50,307 nucleotides of DNA from a bacterium (GTDB lineage: Bacteria; Patescibacteriota; Minisyncoccia; Phycocordibacterales; Phycocordibacteraceae): the NCBI GenBank assembly GCA_021789225.1, contig JAJYJQ010000002.1:1-50307 (forward strand), in the 5' to 3' direction. Numbering within the stretch: position 1 is the first letter of the stretch; each line of letters starts with the position of its first letter. Shown here in pieces: positions 7,513 through 44,389 of the stretch. The notes below the pieces were generated by a model. The model saw only the letters and a program-made list of their open reading frames with translations. It made no database searches and was not told the origin of the DNA. The translations under genes and the position numbers were made by a program.

Positions 7513-8244
7513 CTATGGTCGGAGACTGCCAAGCAAGCCCTCCAACACGCTTTCTGGATACAGATCGCCTGGATAGATTTCGATAAGTTTAAATCCAAGC
7601 TTCTCGGCGAGCTCGCGTTTCTTCCTGATGTTTAGATCGTATGCTCGTTTTGCTCCCGCAAGGCCGAAGAACTCAATAAGCGTATCGCTTCCGATCTTAA
7701 AATCTGCGGTAAAACGCGTCTTCCCGTATCGAGTATGGCGCTCATGCGCTATGCCTTCTCTGGAAAGCAAATCGTCTATGATTTTCTCCGAGAACGAATC
7801 ACACACGTGGCCGTCAGCTGCGGTGAATTTCCTAGCGAAAAGGACCGGATTTGTCTCAAAACCCGCCTTCTTTATGGCGTTATTCCAGCTTCCAAATCTT
7901 GCTTGGTAGATATCCCACGCATTGAATTCGTTTTTCAAAGGAATTCGGCCGGTGCGCTGATAGAAATCCCTAATCTCATCCAGGAGTTCTTCGTCAGTGT
8001 ATTTCTTAACGAATTGATGGGGTCGTAAGCGTATCTTTATAGATTCTCTTTCCGAATTGCCTATCGGGCTGCGCTTGTTCCGGCGCGCCTCTACGGATTC
8101 TTTTTGCGCGGCAGTAAGGCCGATTCCTTTCGTCCACAGATGAGCCGTGCTCAAACTGATGTGCAAGGTTCTCGCTATTTCTCGGTGGGTTTGCCCACTT
8201 TGTCGGAGATGAATAGCTCTAGTTCTCTCTTCTCTCGGACGCAT
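7513..8244 (-). CDS. homing-endonuclease-like protein: N-terminal HTH, homing-endonuclease-associated repeat, C-terminal PD-(D/E)xK-like nuclease
   Basis: HTH (HREIARTLHISLSTAHLW). Repeat YTDEELLDEIRDFYQRTGRIPLKNEF...ARFGSWNNAIKKAGF. C-terminus ADFKIGSDTLIEFFG...RKKRELAEKLGFKLIEIY resembles Vsr/DUF559-type restriction-endonuclease folds. Confidence 0.65.
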   Translation of the reverse strand: MRPREERTRAIHLRQSGQTHREIARTLHISLSTAHLWTKGIGLTAAQKESVEARRNKRSPIGNSERESIKIRLRPHQFVKKYTDEELLDEIRDFYQRTGRIPLKNEFNAWDIYQARFGSWNNAIKKAGFETNPVLFARKFTAADGHVCDSFSEKIIDDLLSREGIAHERHTRYGKTRFTADFKIGSDTLIEFFGLAGAKRAYDLNIRKKRELAEKLGFKLIEIYPGDLYPESVLEGLLGSLRP

Positions 8245-17885: not shown

Positions 17886-18728
17886 ATGGCACTGACAGAT
17901 ACCAAAGGAAAAATAGTGGCGACGCAGCTTCCAGACATCGATCTGAGCGCGTTTCCTGCAGAGCGAGAGTGTGCGCTCGCGGATGTCTGGCGCTACAGCA
18001 TGTTTGAGACCATGTTGTATCGATCGAATAACTTGATGCATGCTCGCCGGGTGCTATGGATCGTTGAAGAACTCATCCCGCTTCTTGCGCCGAATCTCGT
18101 ACTCGATAGCGAGAAAACGCGCACAATGGCGCTCGTGCATGATGATATGGAGATTGTTATCGGCGATATTCAGGCGGGGCACAAGGCGCAGATGAACAAG
18201 GAGCAGCTTGCACAGCTCGATGCGACCGAGGAAGCAGCCATCAACGAATTAGCATTGCGGTACCCGAAAACCGTAAACGGCTACTCGTACCGCGATCTGC
18301 TGCATGAGGAGCGCAAGAAAGGAAGTGTTGAAGCGCAGCTGGTCTCTTATGCAGATAAGCTGGATGCATATAACGAAGCGCTCCACGATGTGCTTGGGGG
18401 AAATCTCAGTCTGCTGACGTCCGTCATCTTCTACACGCGTTTCTTTGCACAGGTGAAAGATCGGTTGCCACTCCTGGTGCCAGGACTTGACGGTGCCGCT
18501 CCGTCACCATTTGTCTATCCCTTCATCCAGTCCCCGAAACCGGAAGAGGGTCCCGTGACGCATGCGGCGTACCAGGAGTTTTCGGGTAAGCCTCATACGA
18601 AAGAGTCGATTCGTAAGGACAGCGTTCGCTTTCCGTTCTACGATGCGTGGAAAAAGCTAGTGCTCACGCGCGGTGGTGACGAGGGTGAGCGCTGGCTTAT
18701 TGAGCAACATGAATCACTTCCGGCATAA
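17886..18728 (+). CDS. HD-domain phosphohydrolase (YfbR-like 5'-deoxynucleotidase family)
   Basis: NNLMHARRVL ... ALVHDDMEIVIGDI gives the H...HD...D pattern. The N-terminal 14 aa (MALTDTKGKIVATQ) copy the AtpG N-terminus. Confidence 0.65.
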   Translation: MALTDTKGKIVATQLPDIDLSAFPAERECALADVWRYSMFETMLYRSNNLMHARRVLWIVEELIPLLAPNLVLDSEKTRTMALVHDDMEIVIGDIQAGHKAQMNKEQLAQLDATEEAAINELALRYPKTVNGYSYRDLLHEERKKGSVEAQLVSYADKLDAYNEALHDVLGGNLSLLTSVIFYTRFFAQVKDRLPLLVPGLDGAAPSPFVYPFIQSPKPEEGPVTHAAYQEFSGKPHTKESIRKDSVRFPFYDAWKKLVLTRGGDEGERWLIEQHESLPA

Positions 18729-21392: not shown

Positions 21393-22022
21393 ATGACCAA
21401 GGAAGAAATCCTCAACAAGTCAGATACGGAGATTCTTGCTATAGCCCGGCAACTACGCGTTGCGTACGGGCTTAAGCGCACGCTCCGATACGCGACCAAA
21501 CGCGATGAAAACGAGCACTCGGAATCGGTTGCTGAACACGTGTTCGCGCTCATGTTTTTGGCGGAGTTCTTCCTTCCTCTTGAAGAGGCGAACGAATCCT
21601 TCGATGTACGAAAACTCCACCAAATCTTACTCTTTCACGATTTCGGGGAGATAAAACATGGAGATCTTCCATATCACTGGAAGACCGAAGAGGATAAAAA
21701 GAAGGAGATTGAGGCTGCGGTCGAGATATTCCAGTCCCTGCCAGCTTCGATGCGTGAAGAATCTTTTGCTCGATGGAGCGAGTATGAGAAACGGGAAAGC
21801 GACGAAGCGCGTTTCGCGTATGCGCTCGACAAAGTCGAGCCTCTATTTGAGCTTATGGATCCTGTAAACGAGCAGTCCATGAAGCGACTCAAATTCTCAT
21901 ACGAGGATCACATTGGAGTAAAACGACGAGCAACCGAGGCGTTTCCGGTCATGCGCAAGTTCGTCGAGGTAATAACACACAGCATGGTTAATCGCGAGGT
22001 GTTTTGGAAGAACGCGATGTAG
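21393..22022 (+). CDS. HD-domain phosphohydrolase (YfbR-like 5'-deoxynucleotidase family)
   Basis: ESVAEHVF ... LLFHDFGEIKHGDLP ... YALDKVEP. Confidence 0.7.
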   Translation: MTKEEILNKSDTEILAIARQLRVAYGLKRTLRYATKRDENEHSESVAEHVFALMFLAEFFLPLEEANESFDVRKLHQILLFHDFGEIKHGDLPYHWKTEEDKKKEIEAAVEIFQSLPASMREESFARWSEYEKRESDEARFAYALDKVEPLFELMDPVNEQSMKRLKFSYEDHIGVKRRATEAFPVMRKFVEVITHSMVNREVFWKNAM

Positions 22023-30452: not shown

Positions 30453-31127
30453 ATGGCATTGCGTCAGAAAAAGGAGGAGGCGATAAAGATGCGTAAAACA
30501 GGTGCAAGCTATAGTCAGATTAAAGATACATTGCACGTTAGCAAAAGTACGCTCAGCCTGTGGTTGCGCGACATGCCGCTTTCAGAGAAACGAATCAATG
30601 AACTCCGCGGTCGTAGCACCAGACGCATCGAACGATATCGAGAGACACGACGTAAAACGCGCGAAGCACGATTGGACGGCGTGCGTGCCCGCGTTGCCAA
30701 AGATATCGGTCGCCTAAGTAAGAGAGACACGTTTATCGCCGGATTGTTCTTGTACTGGGGCGAGGGTGGTAAAACAAAAACAGCAAGTACTACACTCTCG
30801 AATACGGACCCGGCCGTGCTGCTGTTCTTCGTAAGGTGGCTGCAACTGCTTGATGTGCCGAAAGATCGGCTACGTGTGCACGTGCATCTTTACGCAGATA
30901 TGGATGTAAACAAAGAATTACGCTATTGGTCACGCACGCTTGAGTTGCCGCTTAGTGCCTTTCGAAAACCGTATATCAAGCAATCGAACAGAAGCGAGCT
31001 CACCTACCCGCAGCGATTCTCGCACGGCACATGCAATCTGGTTTTTGAGAATCGTGACATCTCAGAATACGTGTTGTCAGCGCTCGACCACATTCGTTCC
31101 TTGTTTGCTGAGCGGGAAACGATATGA
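30453..31127 (+). CDS. LAGLIDADG-type homing-endonuclease-like protein with N-terminal HTH
   Basis: The HTH (YSQIKDTLHVSKSTLSLW) is paralogous to that of 7513-8244. A single LAGLIDADG-like motif FIAGLFLYWGEGGK is followed by LSNTDPAVLLFFVRWL. Confidence 0.5.
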   Translation: MALRQKKEEAIKMRKTGASYSQIKDTLHVSKSTLSLWLRDMPLSEKRINELRGRSTRRIERYRETRRKTREARLDGVRARVAKDIGRLSKRDTFIAGLFLYWGEGGKTKTASTTLSNTDPAVLLFFVRWLQLLDVPKDRLRVHVHLYADMDVNKELRYWSRTLELPLSAFRKPYIKQSNRSELTYPQRFSHGTCNLVFENRDISEYVLSALDHIRSLFAERETI

Positions 31128-31141
31128 TTCCATATATCCAC

Positions 31142-31213
31142 GCGCCTATAGCTCAATGGTAGAGCAACTGTCTTATACACAGTCGGCTCCAGGTTCGAGT
31201 CCTGGTGGGCGCA
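31142..31213 (+). tRNA. tRNA with anticodon UAU (formally tRNA-Ile2-type, AUA decoder)
   Basis: Acceptor GCGCCTA/TGGGCGC, D-arm GCTCAATGGTAGAGC, anticodon stem ACTGT/ACAGT with loop CTTATAC, T-arm CCAGGTTCGAGTCCTGG. Confidence 0.75.
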
Positions 31214-31284
31214 CAGCCTAGACATTTTCGTCTCGTGATGAATGTTATACTTCTTGAGCGGTACTCGAATAATCATCGAACTGA

Positions 31285-36615: not shown

Positions 36616-37695
36616 ATGCACATGCGGACACGAAGTGGGACTCGACCAGATATCTATACGATCGGCCATTCCAATCGATCGCTGCGAGAGTTCGTAGCCT
36701 TGCTTACGGCGCATGGCATCGGGCAGATCATAGATGTGCGCACCGTCCCACGGTCGCGACATAATCCGCAATTCAATGAGAAGCGTCTTGCGTTATCGCT
36801 AAAGAAGCACAACATTCGTTACGTGCGTCTAGAATCGCTTGGCGGATTCCGCCACGCGAAGAAGGATTCGAAAAACACGGGGTGGCGGAACCTCTCGTTC
36901 CGAGGATTTGCCGATTACATGGCAACGGAAGAATTTAATGAGGGTCTTGCCACACTCGAGTCGCTCGCGAGGAAGCGTAGGAGCGCTGTCATGTGCGCCG
37001 AGGCGCTGCCATGGCGCTGCCACCGGTCGCTGATTGCTGACGCGCTCACCAAGCGCCGCTGGGACGTCTTTACTATTATGAGCCCTTCGAATGCGCCGAA
37101 GCACAAGCTGACGCCCTTCTTGAAGGTGAAGAACGGCGTGCTTACGTATCCGGCCGAAAAGCAAAATACAGGCATGATTCGGTACCGATACAAAGGAGCG
37201 AAATTGCTGTTCGTGGGCATCAATCCGCACCACGGATCGTACGCGCGCGGCATACCGTTCTCGAACAACAAACTGTTCTGGTACCTGCTTGCGCATTCGG
37301 GTATCTTGCCCGAATCGCGTGACGAACTGCGCGACGATAACATACTGCGGCGTGTGTATCGTTCTCGTTTCGGCGGTGGCGAGGGGCTTGGATTCGTCAA
37401 TATGGTGGACCGTCCATCTCATGACGTGACTGAGCTTAAACCTGGCGAGGAAATACGCGGACGATCGCGACTGCTGCGTGCCATCAGAAACGAGTGTCCG
37501 AGAGTCGTATGCTTTATCGGGAAGATCGCGTACGAGAAATTCAGCGGCTCAAAAGCATTCGACTTTGGCTGGCAAGCAAATATCGGCGACTCGCGCGTCT
37601 TCGTCATGCATTTCCCGCAACATGGTCCGGCAGCCGTGCGCGTCCGGGAACTACGAATTGCGGCGAAAGCTGCACGAATACCGCTATACAGATAG
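36616..37695 (+). CDS. DUF488 domain fused to a Mug-type (family 2) uracil/mismatch DNA glycosylase
   Basis: N-terminal half: IYTIGHSNRSLREFVALL...DVR..P.S...AVMCAEALPWRCHRSLIADAL (DUF488). C-terminal half: LLFVGINPHHGSYARGIPFSNNKLFWYLL, GFVNMVDRPS, IGKIAYEKF, VFVMHFP (colinear with E. coli Mug). Confidence 0.8.
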   Translation: MHMRTRSGTRPDIYTIGHSNRSLREFVALLTAHGIGQIIDVRTVPRSRHNPQFNEKRLALSLKKHNIRYVRLESLGGFRHAKKDSKNTGWRNLSFRGFADYMATEEFNEGLATLESLARKRRSAVMCAEALPWRCHRSLIADALTKRRWDVFTIMSPSNAPKHKLTPFLKVKNGVLTYPAEKQNTGMIRYRYKGAKLLFVGINPHHGSYARGIPFSNNKLFWYLLAHSGILPESRDELRDDNILRRVYRSRFGGGEGLGFVNMVDRPSHDVTELKPGEEIRGRSRLLRAIRNECPRVVCFIGKIAYEKFSGSKAFDFGWQANIGDSRVFVMHFPQHGPAAVRVRELRIAAKAARIPLYR

Positions 37696-39834: not shown

Positions 39835-39959
39835 GCGCTCTCTCGGCTACTTGTGGCCACTGTAATCTCAGCAGGGATTCGCTTCGGCGGATCCCTTGGT
39901 TTTTCAAGGAGCGGTATCGGGTATAATGAACCCACTATTTATTGATTCAGAGAGACAGT

Positions 39960-40271
39960 ATGAACGGATTTATTGATTTTATGAGGTCGAAGGGGATCGT
40001 CGGCTTGGCGACCGGTTTCATCTTGGGCGGTGGTATCTCAAAAATCACCGCGTCCTTGTCGAACGACATCATCAACCCGCTCGTGGGTGCGGCATTGCCA
40101 GGAGTGACAGGCGATCTTTCAAATGGAATGATCACCGTGCACGGTGCGAAGGTGATGTGGGGAAGTTTCGCGATAAACGTAATTGATTTCCTCATGATCG
40201 CGCTCGTCGTGTACTTTGCAGTGAAGAGGTTTGGTCTTGAGCGGTTGGATAAGAAAGAAGACGCTCAGTAG
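39960..40271 (+). CDS. mscL: large-conductance mechanosensitive channel
   Basis: MNGFIDFMRSKGIVGLATGFILGG...DIINPLVG...NVIDFLMIALVVYF. TATAAT at 39922-39927. Confidence 0.9.
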   Translation: MNGFIDFMRSKGIVGLATGFILGGGISKITASLSNDIINPLVGAALPGVTGDLSNGMITVHGAKVMWGSFAINVIDFLMIALVVYFAVKRFGLERLDKKEDAQ

Positions 40272-40286
40272 GCCCGGATCTTCCGT

Positions 40287-41495
40287 ATGTTCCTCTTTCC
40301 CACACGCGAGCGGTATCGCGCCATCGACGATAATTACAAGCTCGCGCTCGTGCGCCTGGTCTTCTCCTTCGGGACATCGGCCGTGGGGACCGTGTGGAGC
40401 TTGTACATGCACGCGATCGGTTTCTCTGATTCGACGGTCGGGTACATCACGGGTGGGGCAGTATTCCTCTCCCTCGTACTCACGCTTGCGAGCACGCCGA
40501 TACTGGAGTTCTTTCAGGCGCGTCGGCTGCTGATTTTTAGCCTGTTACTGTATACCGTGTCCTATGTGCTCGCCGGGCTCTCGACGAGCAAGGTGCTCTT
40601 CGTGCTCGTGGCGGTTGGCACCGCGATAGCGGTCGCGATCCGGACCGAGAGCTTCGCCATCCTCTTCCGAGACACGACCTCACGCGAGAAGCTTTCGCAG
40701 CGCGAGGGGCTTATGTATGCGCTGGTGAACTTGGGGTGGCTCGTCACGCCGGTATTCGCCGGCTTTTTGCTTGCGCGGTATGGGTTCCCGGTCGTCTTCT
40801 TCTTAAGTGCAGCCATGTTTTTCGTCTCGATGCTGATGCTAGTGTTCAGCGACATGCTGCGCGCACGAAAAACGTTCAGCAGTATCGATACGGATCCGTT
40901 CGTGAGTATCAAGACCTATCTGGCGCGGAGAGAGATGTGGTATCCCTATGCGGTCAAATTCGGTCTTAATGCTGCAAGCGGATTTGTCCTCGTCTACCTG
41001 CCGATTTTCCTCGTCGAGCGCGGCGCGTCGCCCGCGTATATCGGCGCGATGATCAGCATCATGGCTGCCGTGCATGTCCTCTTTGATTTCAAGATTGGCA
41101 AGATTGCCAGGCCACAACAGTTCAAATCGTTCTTCGTGTTCGGATTCGTCTCAAGTGCGGTGTTGCTGGTGTGGGCAAGTTTCATCCAGAATCCGGACGT
41201 GCTCTTGGCGGTGGTGCCGCTCGCGGGCGTCGCGACCCTCTTCGTCGAGCCGTTGCAGGATACATTCTTCTTCTCGCTCATAGAGAAAAGCGAGGACGAG
41301 GAGCGGCTGTATCCGGTGTATAGCACGGCGGCGCAGTTGGGCGGCTTCGTCGCGAAGGTGCTTGCGGCGACGGTGCTGCTCTTCGCGTCGGAACAATTCG
41401 CATATATTGCCATCGCGCTTGTGCTTTTTGCGATTGCAGGTATCGTGGCGCGCATGCGCACCCAGGAAGTGCTCGTGCCGGCGGCTGTCCGCTAA
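40287..41495 (+). CDS. MFS-type transporter
   Basis: 402 aa with about 12 TM segments. Lies directly upstream of the panD triad. Confidence 0.65.
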   Translation: MFLFPTRERYRAIDDNYKLALVRLVFSFGTSAVGTVWSLYMHAIGFSDSTVGYITGGAVFLSLVLTLASTPILEFFQARRLLIFSLLLYTVSYVLAGLSTSKVLFVLVAVGTAIAVAIRTESFAILFRDTTSREKLSQREGLMYALVNLGWLVTPVFAGFLLARYGFPVVFFLSAAMFFVSMLMLVFSDMLRARKTFSSIDTDPFVSIKTYLARREMWYPYAVKFGLNAASGFVLVYLPIFLVERGASPAYIGAMISIMAAVHVLFDFKIGKIARPQQFKSFFVFGFVSSAVLLVWASFIQNPDVLLAVVPLAGVATLFVEPLQDTFFFSLIEKSEDEERLYPVYSTAAQLGGFVAKVLAATVLLFASEQFAYIAIALVLFAIAGIVARMRTQEVLVPAAVR

Positions 41496-41567
41496 GCTCG
41501 CGCAATCGGCGAGCTCGCGCGTTCATGAATCTTTCACGATGTGGGTGCGTATCATCACGGTACGCAT

Positions 41568-41960
41568 ATGCAGATACTCGCGTGTACCGCAAAGATTCAC
41601 CGGGCGACCGTCACCGAGGCGGACTTGAACTACGTCGGCTCCATTACTATCGATGAAGCGCTCCTGGAGGCGAGCGGCATCCGGCCTTTCCAGATGGTGC
41701 AGATCACGAACGTAGCGAACGGCACGCGCTGGCGCACGTATGCCATCGCCGGCAAGCGAGGGAGCGGAGACATGTGCTTGAACGGTCCGCCCGCGCGTCA
41801 TTTCCAGAAGGGAGATGTGATCATCGTGCTCGCGGAGGCGCTGGTCGATCCTTCGGAATTCGCCGCTATGAGTCCGGTCGTGGTGTTTGTCGATGAGCAC
41901 AACCATGTGACGACGGTGCAAAGACACCGCGCGATACCGATTCGCGCGACACGCGCATGA
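41568..41960 (+). CDS. panD: aspartate 1-decarboxylase (pyruvoyl-dependent)
   Basis: KIHRATVTEADLNYVGSITIDE includes the Gly-Ser self-cleavage site. GDVIIVLA is also present. Confidence 0.9.
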   Translation: MQILACTAKIHRATVTEADLNYVGSITIDEALLEASGIRPFQMVQITNVANGTRWRTYAIAGKRGSGDMCLNGPPARHFQKGDVIIVLAEALVDPSEFAAMSPVVVFVDEHNHVTTVQRHRAIPIRATRA

Positions 41961-42946
41961 ATACGTCTGCCGTATTTACGGGCCCGAACGCACTTGCGAC
42001 GTTTCTGCAACCAGAAGCGAACGCGCCGACGCCGCTCGTGGAGCTTCCGCGTACATTGAATGCATTCGCGCACGAGGGCGTGCGCATCTTCGCGAAGCTC
42101 GCGTACCTTTCGCCGCTCTTCACGAGCAAACAGCTCGCGGCGCGCCACCTCCTGCAGCGTGCGAAAGACGAGGGGCGCTTGAACGGCGTGCACACGCTCG
42201 TCGAGAATTCGTCGGGGAACATGGCAGCGAGTCTCATCGTGCTCGCGCGGCAGTTCGGCATCTCGCGCGTGGTCGTGGTGGTGCCGCGCGATATTGCGCC
42301 GGGGAAGCTTGAATTGCTGCGCGTGCTTGGTGCGGACATCGAATTTCATACGGCAGCATCAGGGAGTGAGAGCGGCGTGGCGCACGCGCAGAAGCTCGGC
42401 CGGCAGCGCGGGTGGCTCAACCTCGGGCAGTACCAGAACGAGGCGAACCCGGAAGCGTATGAGCGCTATCTGGCGCCGCAGGTGTGGGAGCAGACGGGCG
42501 GGAAGCTCTCGGTCTTTTGTGCGGGGCTTGGTACCACGGGCACGCTCCTGGGGTCGAGGCGGTATTTGAAAGAGCGGTCGCCTGCGATAGCGGTCCTGGG
42601 TGTCGTGCCGCGCCATGACGCGGTGCCGGGCGTGCGGAGCGCGCGCCGCCTCGAAGAGGTCGCGTTCGCGTGGGAAGACGCGATCGATCATCGTATCGAG
42701 GTGGAGCCGAAAGAGGCATTCAAGGCGAGCCTTGCGCTCTGCCGCTCTGGCATCCTCGCGGGGCCGAGTTCGGGCATGGCGCTCGCTGGGCTTCGGGAGA
42801 TGCTTGCGGCGCACAAGGTGGCGGGCACGCTCGATACGTTTCGCAATGCGGCGGGCGAGGTGGTCGCCGCGTTCGTGTGCCCGGACTCGGCCCTCTTGTA
42901 TTTGGAAAAATATTCGACGCACCTCGACCCGGAGGATTTCCAATGA
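41957..42946 (+). CDS. PLP-dependent beta-substituting enzyme of the cysteine synthase/SbnA (fold type II) family, divergent
   Basis: TPLVEL, a Lys in SPLFTSKQLAA at the position of the canonical S-x-K-D-R motif, ENSSGNMAASL, GLGTTGTLLG, AGPSSGMAL. ATGA overlap with panD. Confidence 0.7.
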   Translation: MNTSAVFTGPNALATFLQPEANAPTPLVELPRTLNAFAHEGVRIFAKLAYLSPLFTSKQLAARHLLQRAKDEGRLNGVHTLVENSSGNMAASLIVLARQFGISRVVVVVPRDIAPGKLELLRVLGADIEFHTAASGSESGVAHAQKLGRQRGWLNLGQYQNEANPEAYERYLAPQVWEQTGGKLSVFCAGLGTTGTLLGSRRYLKERSPAIAVLGVVPRHDAVPGVRSARRLEEVAFAWEDAIDHRIEVEPKEAFKASLALCRSGILAGPSSGMALAGLREMLAAHKVAGTLDTFRNAAGEVVAAFVCPDSALLYLEKYSTHLDPEDFQ

Positions 42947-43665
42947 GTATGTCCTCGACAATTTTCACCCCGAATGGTTCGCGTGCGCTCGCGATGCGTG
43001 TGGGCGGCGTTTCTTATCTCCGGCTTCCGGTACGCACGCGCCGCATCACAGAGCAAGACGACCTTTTCGCATTGCTCGGGGAGTATGTCGCGCCGCACGT
43101 GGAGTCGGGGGATGTCATTTTCGTAAGTGAGAAGGCGGTCGCGCTCACGCAGGGGCGGGTGGTGCGCATTAACGCGGTGCAGGTTTCAGCGCTTGCGCGC
43201 ATCCTCTCGGGCCACGTGCGCAATCATGTGGGGACGGCGCAGTTCCGCGGCTTCGGGCATGGCACGGCGCCTGCGATGCAGCTCGTGATCGAGGAGGCGG
43301 GCGTGCTGCGCGTTTTGGTTGCGGCGACCGTCGCGGCGGTGACACGACCGTTCGGTATCCACGGCGCGTTCTATGTGCTCGTGGGGAAGCGCGCGAAGTC
43401 AGTGGACTGCCCGATGTCGTTTGATATCGAGCCGTACACCGCGTATGCGAAGCGGCCGCCACTCGACCCACGCGGCGTGGCAAAAAAGATTCACTCGGTG
43501 CTCGGCGTGGAGGCGGTGGTCGTGGACGCAAATTATCTGGGCGCGTTCTCGCTGGGGAAGTCGAGCGCGCGTATCACCGAGCGGTTCATCCGCGCCGTGC
43601 TCAAAGATAACCCGGCCGGCCAAGCCGACGAGATGACGCCGTTCCTTATCATCCGGAAGGAGTAG
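42943..43665 (+). CDS. CofE-like (F420-0:gamma-glutamyl ligase family) amide ligase
   Basis: GDVIFVSEKAVALTQGR ... VVVDANYLG ... LKDNPAGQADEMTPFLIIR. This order and spacing are as in the PF01996-type family. ATGA overlap with the upstream gene. Confidence 0.6.
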   Translation: MSMSSTIFTPNGSRALAMRVGGVSYLRLPVRTRRITEQDDLFALLGEYVAPHVESGDVIFVSEKAVALTQGRVVRINAVQVSALARILSGHVRNHVGTAQFRGFGHGTAPAMQLVIEEAGVLRVLVAATVAAVTRPFGIHGAFYVLVGKRAKSVDCPMSFDIEPYTAYAKRPPLDPRGVAKKIHSVLGVEAVVVDANYLGAFSLGKSSARITERFIRAVLKDNPAGQADEMTPFLIIRKE

Positions 43666-43738: not shown

Positions 43739-44389
43739 CTAATGCGCGAGGGCGAGCGGGATGATGCAGGTGGCGCCGGCGGCGGTGAGCGCGTCGATGG
43801 CAGCTTGCATGGTGGCGCCGGTGGTGACGACGTCGTCGAGGAGAAGGTAGGTGAGGGTGGGGTCGAGCGGGTGCGCGGCGCCGAAGGCGCCGCGCATGTT
43901 GCGGATACGCTCTTGCCGCGAGAGTGTCGTTTGCGAGACAGTGTCACGCGTGCGCACGAGAATGTCGGTCGCAAGCGAGAGATCGCTCTCGCGCAGGGCG
44001 CGCCGAGCGATTTCTTCTGCCTGGTTGTAGCCGCGCTCGGCGCGCCGCGCATTCGAGAGCGGAATCGGCGTGAGCACGGCGCGGCCGAACCCTTCCTCCG
44101 CCTGCCACTCCGTCAGGTAGTCCTGGAGCGCACTGCCCAAGAGCGAGAATGCGCGTTCGCTCCGATGGTATTTCGCTTCGTGCATGAGTGCGCGCACCTG
44201 CGGGTCGGCGAACGAGAGGAGGGCGGTCGCTTCGGGGCGGCACACGCGGATGAGCCGAGGCGAGCTGCGCGCAAGGAGCGTGTCTTCGGTGAACGCGCGC
44301 ACCTGCCGCTCATCCGGGCGCGGCGGGAAGAGTAGATCAAGCACGATGGTGGCGAGACGGCGCATAGCTTCATGATAAGATACTCGCAT
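43739..44389 (-). CDS. comF: ComF-family phosphoribosyltransferase-domain protein
   Basis: RGYNQAEEIAR and the PRTase motif LLLDDVVTTGATM. The N-terminal Cys-rich finger is absent. An alternative start is at 44365. Confidence 0.8.
   Translation of the reverse strand: MRVSYHEAMRRLATIVLDLLFPPRPDERQVRAFTEDTLLARSSPRLIRVCRPEATALLSFADPQVRALMHEAKYHRSERAFSLLGSALQDYLTEWQAEEGFGRAVLTPIPLSNARRAERGYNQAEEIARRALRESDLSLATDILVRTRDTVSQTTLSRQERIRNMRGAFGAAHPLDPTLTYLLLDDVVTTGATMQAAIDALTAAGATCIIPLALAH

Follow-up and report, generated by a model that had tools for sequence, protein, structure and literature searches.

A conserved gene trio of Paceibacteria, encoding PanD, a CysM-like enzyme and a CofE-fold protein, that most likely builds a beta-alanine-containing compound

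Several described pathways build small molecules with a CysK-like enzyme, a decarboxylase, an amide ligase and an exporter. This logic is found in the biosynthesis of staphyloferrin B, which involves SbnA, SbnH and NRPS-independent siderophore (NIS) synthetases, and in that of ethylenediaminedisuccinate (EDDS), encoded by the aes genes. The thiol peptide homoglutathione (gamma-Glu-Cys-beta-Ala) contains both cysteine and beta-alanine. A locus of comparable composition is described here in a 50,307-nt stretch of DNA from a bacterium of the phylum Patescibacteriota (contig JAJYJQ010000002.1 of assembly GCA_021789225.1; hereafter, the window). Three consecutive plus-strand genes code for a 130-aa pyruvoyl-dependent L-aspartate 1-decarboxylase proenzyme (panD, 41568–41960), a 329-aa CysM-like fold-type II pyridoxal phosphate (PLP)-dependent beta-replacement enzyme (41957–42946) and a 240-aa CofE-fold protein, presumably an amide ligase that depends on NTP (42943–43665; hereafter, the ligase). 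By its best database matches the contig falls within the Paceibacteria/Parcubacteria, a group of the candidate phyla radiation (CPR). This trio most likely builds a beta-alanine-containing compound.

The stop codon of panD is joined to the start codon of the PLP-enzyme gene by an ATGA at 41957–41960, and the stop codon of the latter is joined to the start of the ligase gene by a second ATGA at 42943–42946. These pairwise overlaps indicate that the trio is probably expressed together, and they would permit translational coupling. The gene coordinates, both overlaps and the 72 nt separating the stop codon of an upstream major facilitator superfamily (MFS) transporter gene from the panD start, as given in the original prediction, were all reproduced from the sequence.

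The original prediction had staked its proposal on the conservation of the three genes as a unit in other genomes, and such conservation was found. The sample consisted of 79 Parcubacterial loci carrying the ligase gene, with flanks of up to 8 kb, many of them shortened by contig ends; open reading frames (ORFs) of related loci were called by a codon-position GC score. A panD gene lies no more than 8 kb from the ligase gene in 51 of the 79 loci; for a CysK-family PLP-enzyme gene this number is 47, and 43 loci contain both. Restricting the count to the 31 loci whose flanks reach 7 kb or more in both directions gives 25, 22, and 22, respectively. The trio loci show 10 gene orders, 19 of the trios span 3 kb or less, and start/stop overlaps are frequent. 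In 28 loci the PanD and PLP-enzyme genes are same-strand neighbours, while the ligase gene is adjacent to the PLP-enzyme gene in 17 and to panD in 15. The PLP partner in these loci is either 45–67% or about 30% identical to the protein of the window, always with the CysM-type features kept. Because the linkage survives repeated rearrangement of gene order, these data argue for a conserved unit under selection rather than inherited synteny. Passive synteny would be expected if three unrelated housekeeping genes had simply been inherited together, namely an ordinary PanD, a cysteine synthase and a CofE-like enzyme acting, for example, in FolC2-like glutamylation of folate. All trio loci come from a single class, the Paceibacteria, so that shared ancestry adds to the linkage, and the ligase occurs in Clostridia as a stand-alone gene of housekeeping type. 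However, 10 gene orders, the adjacency of every pair in some genome and the start/stop overlaps are not predicted by this explanation, which is regarded as unlikely. A shared pathway, in contrast, is supported by the ATGA overlaps and by the linkage kept across shuffled gene orders, and the three enzymes are likely to serve a single pathway in which beta-alanine is used by a route other than the textbook PanC one.

The decarboxylase is orthodox. It scores 131.1 bits with the TIGR00223 model, above the curated equivalog cut-off of 106, matches PF02261 (Asp_decarbox) with an E-value of 1.5e-43, and has Mycobacterium tuberculosis PanD (PDB 2c45, E 6e-25) as its best match of known structure. The Gly24-Ser25 self-cleavage site is intact, as seen in the translation and in the alignment to 2c45, and the catalytic and substrate-binding residues K9, H11, Y22, R54, T57, Y58, and N72 are all kept. 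The start codon is the ATG at 41568, as in homologues, and not the upstream GTG at 41541. The family score above the cut-off, the processing site and the conserved residues together support the assignment of beta-alanine as the predicted product, and the identification of a bona fide PanD with a Gly-Ser site in the original prediction stands. In one related locus (L163:6693-7511) two tandem PanD-like segments, with 35% and 43% identity to the PanD of the window, were called as one 272-aa frame and may represent a duplicated or fused PanD. An apparent PanD-ligase fusion of 379 aa (P0089) was rejected, its extra N-terminal sequence resulting from a mis-called start. A taurine route comprising cysteate synthase and a decarboxylase was also considered and is unlikely, given the orthodox PanD and the 92 bits obtained with the cysteate synthase model against a cut-off of 600.

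The second protein matches Pfam PALP with an E-value of 2.2e-49 and falls below the cut-off of every curated CysK, CysM, SbnA, cystathionine beta-synthase (CBS) and cysteate-synthase model by a wide margin. Its best score among the cysteine-synthase models (TIGR01136/01138/01139, NF008735) is 145.7 bits against 344. Alignment with Escherichia coli CysK and CysM shows that K58, S86-G87-N88, Q158, the GTTGT loop (G192–T196) and S271 are invariant, so that the PLP enzyme shares with them the catalytic Lys, the SSGN loop, the Gln, the GTTGT phosphate loop and the Ser. It is just 27–30% identical to these enzymes, lacks the "SVKDR" context of the catalytic Lys, with no "KDR" following the latter, and carries extra conserved N- and C-terminal segments, PLPLVELP and YLxKYSTHLDPxDF. 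Its VPGVR loop is of the short CysM type with a conserved Arg (IPGIRR in E. coli CysM) and not the longer loop of CysK. Therefore, the fold-type II beta-replacement assignment of the original prediction stands, the residue set being complete, whereas the SbnA-like label does not, since the enzyme is CysM-like by its loop. The Lys context SPLFTSKQLAA, which had been called unusual, turned out to be normal for the subfamily, with the consensus LPLLNIKSLPA.

The nearest solved structures (8h4q/8h4h, E 4e-54 over residues 6–324) belong to a "cysteine synthase-like protein B," a fungal PALP-rhodanese protein kept across filamentous ascomycetes and sharing the subfamily motifs. The PLP enzyme of the window, unlike the fungal protein, has no rhodanese domain. 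No paper on the function of 8h4q/8h4h was found in the literature. The subfamily is marked by N- and C-terminal motifs not shared with other PLP enzymes and spans Acidobacteriota, Alpha- and Gammaproteobacteria, Actinomycetota and the CPR. Its bacterial members include PLP-rhodanese fusions with a C-x-x-G-x-[KR]-S loop of the sulfurtransferase type, and their rhodanese domains are probably catalytically competent. The CysM-type loop and the fusion of relatives to sulfurtransferase-type rhodanese make sulfur chemistry more likely for this enzyme than amine addition of the SbnA type.

The latter chemistry would be required if the trio made a metallophore. SbnA joins the amine of glutamate to O-phosphoserine. 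In an analogous reaction of the PLP enzyme, aminoacrylate would be attacked by the amine of beta-alanine, with N-(2-carboxyethyl)-2,3-diaminopropionate as the result; the ligase would extend this compound, and an MFS or VIT1 protein would carry it across the membrane. Such a product, an aminopolycarboxylate chelator, would be comparable to staphyloferrin B or EDDS precursors. Consistent with such a role, PanD and the PLP enzyme form the tightest pair, and genes for VIT1-family proteins, P1B ATPases and MFS transporters adjoin it. However, the SbnA model TIGR03945 scores only 115.7 bits against a cut-off of 350, and the loop and rhodanese fusions point to sulfur nucleophiles. Besides, neither the window nor the related loci showed an SbnB-like gene; this and all other gene absences reported here refer to the window and to local neighbourhoods with flanks of up to 10 kb. 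A metallophore is therefore the least probable of the products considered here, and very unlikely.

The genomic contexts of the PLP subfamily are diverse. The PLP-rhodanese fusions, 460–500 aa long, occur in Paceibacterota, Saccharimonadales and Gammaproteobacteria, and their rhodanese domain also has a conserved C-terminal Cys. A gene for a CbiA/MinD-type P-loop NTPase precedes the fusion gene in four loci (L044, 5923–8464; L049, 5531–8383; L050; L052), and a Fur-family regulator accompanies it in L033, L049, and L052. In marine Alphaproteobacteria (L029, L035, L037, L039, L042, and L045) the subfamily gene is co-transcribed with arsR. Divergent from this unit is an operon encoding an MIP aquaporin, a PatB-family C-S lyase, ArsD and ArsA (e.g., L045:2751-8427); no paper describing the subfamily in an arsenic-island context was found. 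In Parcubacteria, including genomes of the Kaiserbacteria type, the PanD-PLP pair is followed by a short VIT1-family gene in 12 loci, as determined by ORF clustering, with a 4-nt overlap in L165 (L165:11212-12779). Alternatively, in 15 loci a P1B heavy-metal ATPase gene flanks or faces the pair (e.g., L101:6986-8791; TIGR01525 442 bits vs. 346). Taken together, the ArsR/ArsA/ArsD, Fur-like, VIT1, and P1B ATPase contexts point to a role of the subfamily in providing cysteine or sulfur, regulated by metals or metalloids. In Acidobacteriota the orthologue adjoins a group-II decarboxylase gene in 19 loci (among L019–L028, e.g., L023:5100-7993 and L026); in Acidobacteriaceae an Asn-synthase-like gene of 620 aa lies directly upstream of it and a YeiH-family putative sulfate exporter is encoded close by. 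Substitution of PanD by this group-II decarboxylase (Pyridoxal_deC) was considered and dropped, the enzyme being closest to aromatic-amino-acid decarboxylases (7xin, 6e-70; 4obu, 1e-67) and not to PanP or CSAD.

The third protein matches PF01996 with 41.4 bits against a gathering score of 25, over its N-terminal two thirds only. Its scores with the CofE equivalog models are far below the cut-offs, with 18.7 bits vs. 180.65 for TIGR01916 and 17.7 vs. 274 for NF009809. In a search of the PDB with Foldseek, an AlphaFold (AF2) model of the ligase with a mean confidence (pLDDT) of 86 retrieved only CofE structures (2phn, 7uld, and 2g9i; E 1e-9, TM-score 0.57, probability 1.0). Comparison by sequence only aligns about 60 N-terminal residues with CofE proteins of the PDB, with E-values of 0.15–0.5, and the fold search was needed for the assignment because this match is barely detectable. 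The ligase is about 21% identical to CofE of A. fulgidus (2phn/7uld), with local matches to the motifs PPLDPxGxAxK and "D-x-N," and the Asp of the CofE "ITDTN" motif, compared by sequence, is retained as D195. In contrast to CofE and to FolC2 of Chlamydia, it carries an extra conserved insert, RNHVGTxxFRGxGHGT. FolC2 is a CofE-fold enzyme that replaces FolC in Chlamydia. With TIGR04132, the FolC2 model, the ligase reaches 20.5 bits, the cut-off being 350, a further point against the housekeeping explanation, and no folate genes were found near the ligase. Thus, membership of the CofE family, as originally predicted, holds for the fold, as indicated by Foldseek and PF01996, and fails for CofE orthology: the modelled protein has the CofE fold but is neither a CofE nor a FolC2 orthologue. 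It probably belongs to a large F420-independent branch of CofE-fold proteins, and its amide-ligase activity is presumed by analogy. The host organisms, to our knowledge, are not known to make F420, and no F420 biosynthesis genes are among the frequent neighbours in the 79 loci.

Combination of these assignments outlines a possible route. PanD would cleave itself at Gly24-Ser25 to form the pyruvoyl group and convert L-aspartate to beta-alanine. The CysM-like enzyme would convert O-phospho- or O-acetyl-serine to aminoacrylate, and addition of a sulfur nucleophile would yield L-cysteine or an S-substituted cysteine. The CofE-fold enzyme, as far as can be judged from its fold, would use GTP or ATP to form an acyl phosphate on a carboxylate and condense it with an amine. 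By analogy with glutamate in true CofE, the amine to be added would come from beta-alanine, and the carboxylate from the product of the PLP enzyme. The product may be, at a guess, a thiol dipeptide of the cysteinyl-beta-alanine type, equivalent to the C-terminal half of homoglutathione. Such a compound could be a small thiol or metal buffer, or a precursor, and its export in this genome may be the task of the MFS protein encoded upstream. The trio would then represent a biosynthetic module of Paceibacteria making an amide-linked conjugate of two self-made amino-acid blocks, a tentative reading to which a probability of about 0.3 is assigned.

Several observations weigh against this conjugate. 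The substrates proposed for the second and third steps are deduced from sequence and fold. The Thr of the CofE "ITDTN" motif, a presumed metal ligand, corresponds to an invariant Ala in the ligase ("VDANY"). PanD is not encoded near the ligase in 6 of the 31 full-flank loci. The 80 Clostridia loci carry the ligase gene alone, with neither a PanD nor a PLP-enzyme gene nearby, and the PLP subfamily pairs with unrelated genes in other phyla, such as that of the aromatic-amino-acid-decarboxylase-like enzyme in Acidobacteria. Finally, among the best 150 representatives of the ligase family, the CofE-like domain carries an N-terminal AsnB module (GATase_7 and Asn_synthase) in 27 and is fused to a MurNAc-L-Ala amidase (Amidase_3) in four; these fusions point to aspartate/asparagine metabolism or cell-wall substrates rather than to cysteine. 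The compact pathway for an unknown conjugate suggested in the original prediction survives as a conserved unit, while the ligase on its own in Clostridia, the AsnB and amidase fusions, which widen the range of possible products, and the lack of conservation of the MFS gene argue against its narrower form. The trio could thus make a small soluble conjugate, but other products are conceivable as well.

Another possible product is coenzyme A (CoA). Beta-alanine and cysteine are the amino-acid-derived parts of pantetheine, and among textbook pathways only CoA biosynthesis draws on both. Since no other known pathway needs the two, the ligase might either replace PanC, joining pantoate and beta-alanine, or link beta-alanine to cysteine in a non-canonical way, the trio thus belonging to a cofactor pathway. 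Archaea have a non-homologous replacement of PanC. The adjacency of PanD and ligase genes in 15 loci resembles panC-panD clustering, no PanC was found near any locus, and the first substrate of CofE offers its 2-hydroxy-acid (lactyl) carboxylate for joining to an amino acid, which would parallel the reaction of pantoate with beta-alanine. However, the rest of the pathway is not apparent. Pfam scans of 28 ORFs of the window revealed no pan, coa, cysteine-regulon or F420 family, the other ORFs (e.g., those of ATP synthase and pili) being read by eye only. A tblastn search with E. coli PanB, PanC, CoaBC, CoaD, and CoaE gave no match in the window or in 96 related CPR loci (1.18 Mb), compared with 62 matches for PanD. 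The absence of panB/panC, cysteine-regulon and F420 genes nearby, noted in the original prediction, thus holds for the window. Moreover, a source of pantoate is not evident, and the role of PanC is at odds with the family members of Clostridia and with the fusions to AsnB and amidase. Overall, the participation of the trio in such a shortcut to CoA appears rather doubtful.

The wider family of the ligase suggests a third type of product. It comprises 1132 representative clusters from CPR bacteria, Clostridia and other phyla, and fused and stand-alone members can be regarded as one family because all share one conserved residue set. The AsnB-CofE-like fusions include P0394, P0426, P0473, and P0405, with one named member from Nomurabacteria. 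The amidase fusions (P0460, P0474, P0486, and P0495) come from metagenome-assembled genomes of Bacillota and Spirochaetia and have no obvious signal peptide; one such gene (L263:8001-9647) is followed by a Polysacc_synt flippase-type gene. The best 150 representatives also include single fusions with PlsY, an HD domain, adenylate kinase, an M20 peptidase and GNAT, as well as TPR repeats in four proteins.

The fusions with Amidase_3, AsnB, and M20 peptidase are consistent with a role of the ligase in modifying the cell envelope. According to this explanation, the ligase would attach the beta-alanine made by PanD to a carboxylate of a peptidoglycan precursor or stem peptide, of another envelope polymer, or at the C-terminus of a protein or peptide. 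In relatives, the AsnB domain would instead amidate such a carboxylate, and a peptidase would remove the added group. A further unusual amino acid, such as a lanthionine-type diamino acid or cysteine, would come from the PLP enzyme. AsnB homologues (AsnB1, LtsA, and AsnH) amidate meso-diaminopimelate (mDAP) or D-Asp in peptidoglycan, and in Selenomonas the D-Glu of peptidoglycan carries amide-bound cadaverine that a decarboxylase produces. Gene neighbourhoods agree with this proposal. In Parcubacteria the ligase gene is surrounded by genes for PAP2, GH130 and an unassigned secreted "3D" protein, the 3D label and a neighbouring putative polysaccharide deacetylase being assigned by reading the sequences only, and near the ligase of Clostridia DacB-like, VanY-like and LCP-like genes were recognized in the same way.

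An unannotated 219-aa homologue of CPR-C4, a vasohibin-like cysteine protease of solved structure (PDB 7ob6, E 1e-50), is encoded in 36 of the 79 ligase loci (e.g., L123:3898-4557 on the minus strand, L122, L151, and L165). In 23 loci its gene is adjacent and convergent to that of the ligase, with the two genes sharing 4 nt at their ends in 11. This pairing of ligase and peptidase is suggestive and likewise agrees with envelope modification. In the CPR-C4 paper (PMC9108980) gene neighbours gave no functional clue.

Other observations argue against envelope modification. The fusions are found in distant members of the family (130–190 bits, compared with about 400 for the closest representative), the substrates of which may differ. 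One AsnB-fused gene (L259:6266-8941) lies directly upstream of gatC-gatA-gatB, which points to asparagine metabolism rather than the cell wall. The position of the PLP-enzyme gene as the closest partner of panD is left unexplained, and the window contains no CPR-C4, 3D, PAP2, or VIT1 gene. In addition, beta-alanine is not known as a constituent of peptidoglycan. Envelope modification thus remains less probable than the amide-linked conjugate and is best described as a possible alternative. Both the metallophore and the housekeeping explanations are less likely than envelope modification or the CoA shortcut.

The conjugate and some of its alternatives may be parts of a broader picture, proposed here as a speculation. 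The CofE-fold ligase would join self-made beta-alanine and cysteine to form either a low-molecular-weight thiol of CPR bacteria or beta-alanyl-cysteine feeding pantetheine and CoA past PanC and CoaB. The ligase superfamily, in view of its AsnB and MurNAc-amidase fusions and the CPR-C4 neighbour, would perform a general addition of small amino acids to terminal carboxylates.

The genes flanking the trio were also analyzed. Upstream of panD on the plus strand lie mscL (39942–40271), encoding a large-conductance mechanosensitive channel (Pfam MscL 3e-16), and the gene for the 402-aa MFS transporter (40287–41495; MFS_1 5.5e-30), separated by 15 nt. A terminator-like hairpin at 39873–39896 on the plus strand, with a 10-pair stem including six G-C pairs and followed by TGGTTTTTCA, is located 3' of a glyoxalase-family gene and 5' of mscL and is probably the upstream boundary of the transcription unit. 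Inspection for hairpins revealed no terminator between mscL and the MFS gene and no convincing one in the MFS-panD spacer. Since the hairpin precedes mscL and no convincing terminator separates the MFS gene from panD, a transcript may span mscL, the MFS gene, and the trio. The spacer contains a small hairpin right after the MFS stop (41496–41514; GCTCGC, a 7-nt loop and GCGAGC) that is not followed by a T-run. Downstream, a convergent comF-family gene on the minus strand (43739–44389; TIGR00201 ComF 2e-20, under the curated cut-off of 233.6 bits, and Pribosyltran) is the boundary of the module and lies outside it; 3' of it are pilM and further pilus genes. The same order of comF and pilM occurs in L002 and L003, and in L001 only as an unlabelled ORF call. 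The link of the MFS transporter to the trio, emphasized in the original prediction, is weak: an orthologue upstream of the trio was found in just one other genome (L002/L095), with 63% identity. mscL is not conserved beside the trio in related loci. Accordingly, the MFS and mscL genes were rejected as conserved parts of the module.

Other features of the window lie outside the trio. An HD-domain (YfbR-like) gene (17886–18728) lies between the ATP synthase alpha and gamma genes, both of which were read by eye, and an HD_3 gene (21393–22022) directly follows the ATP synthase epsilon gene. Two HTH_23 proteins (7513–8244 on the minus strand and 30453–31127 on the plus strand) are encoded beside tRNA genes, one of them with a homing-endonuclease-associated HNH repeat. 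The GC content falls to 0.50 at 30–32 kb, compared with 0.57–0.62 elsewhere. A tRNA-Ile with the anticodon TAT, uncommon in bacteria, was predicted by ARAGORN at 31142–31214. The ORF at 36616–37695 comprises a DUF488 fused with a uracil-DNA-glycosylase-superfamily domain.

CPR bacteria carry very few biosynthetic genes, and because of this the retention of the trio in most sampled Paceibacteria indicates that it is probably important to them. PanD is kept with no pantothenate pathway visible in the local neighbourhoods. The family of CofE-fold proteins, with over 1100 representative clusters, gains a testable role independent of F420, and the CPR-C4 protease, of solved structure but functionally orphan, gains a conserved genomic partner. 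Should the product be a thiol or part of a cofactor, it would be relevant to redox or metal buffering in CPR bacteria and to their acquisition of CoA. Since the three proteins are small and soluble, reconstitution of the pathway should be straightforward.

In spite of the similar logic, the trio has no component family orthologous to those of the staphyloferrin B and EDDS pathways: its decarboxylase is the pyruvoyl enzyme PanD, its ligase has the CofE fold instead of being an NIS synthetase, and SbnB is not encoded. Homoglutathione provides a chemical precedent for the proposed product, while the ligases forming homoglutathione and glutathione are ATP-grasp enzymes or GshA, none of which is present here, and the proposed dipeptide is known only as a prediction. 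No paper describing the trio, PanD in CPR bacteria or a non-F420 branch of CofE was found. Compared with PanD of E. coli and M. tuberculosis, the decarboxylase of the window belongs to the same family and has the same processing site and residues, while its gene is not clustered with panB or panC and has those of a CysM-like enzyme and a CofE-fold protein as its constant partners. The component families are known, and it is their combination, together with its predicted product, that is new.

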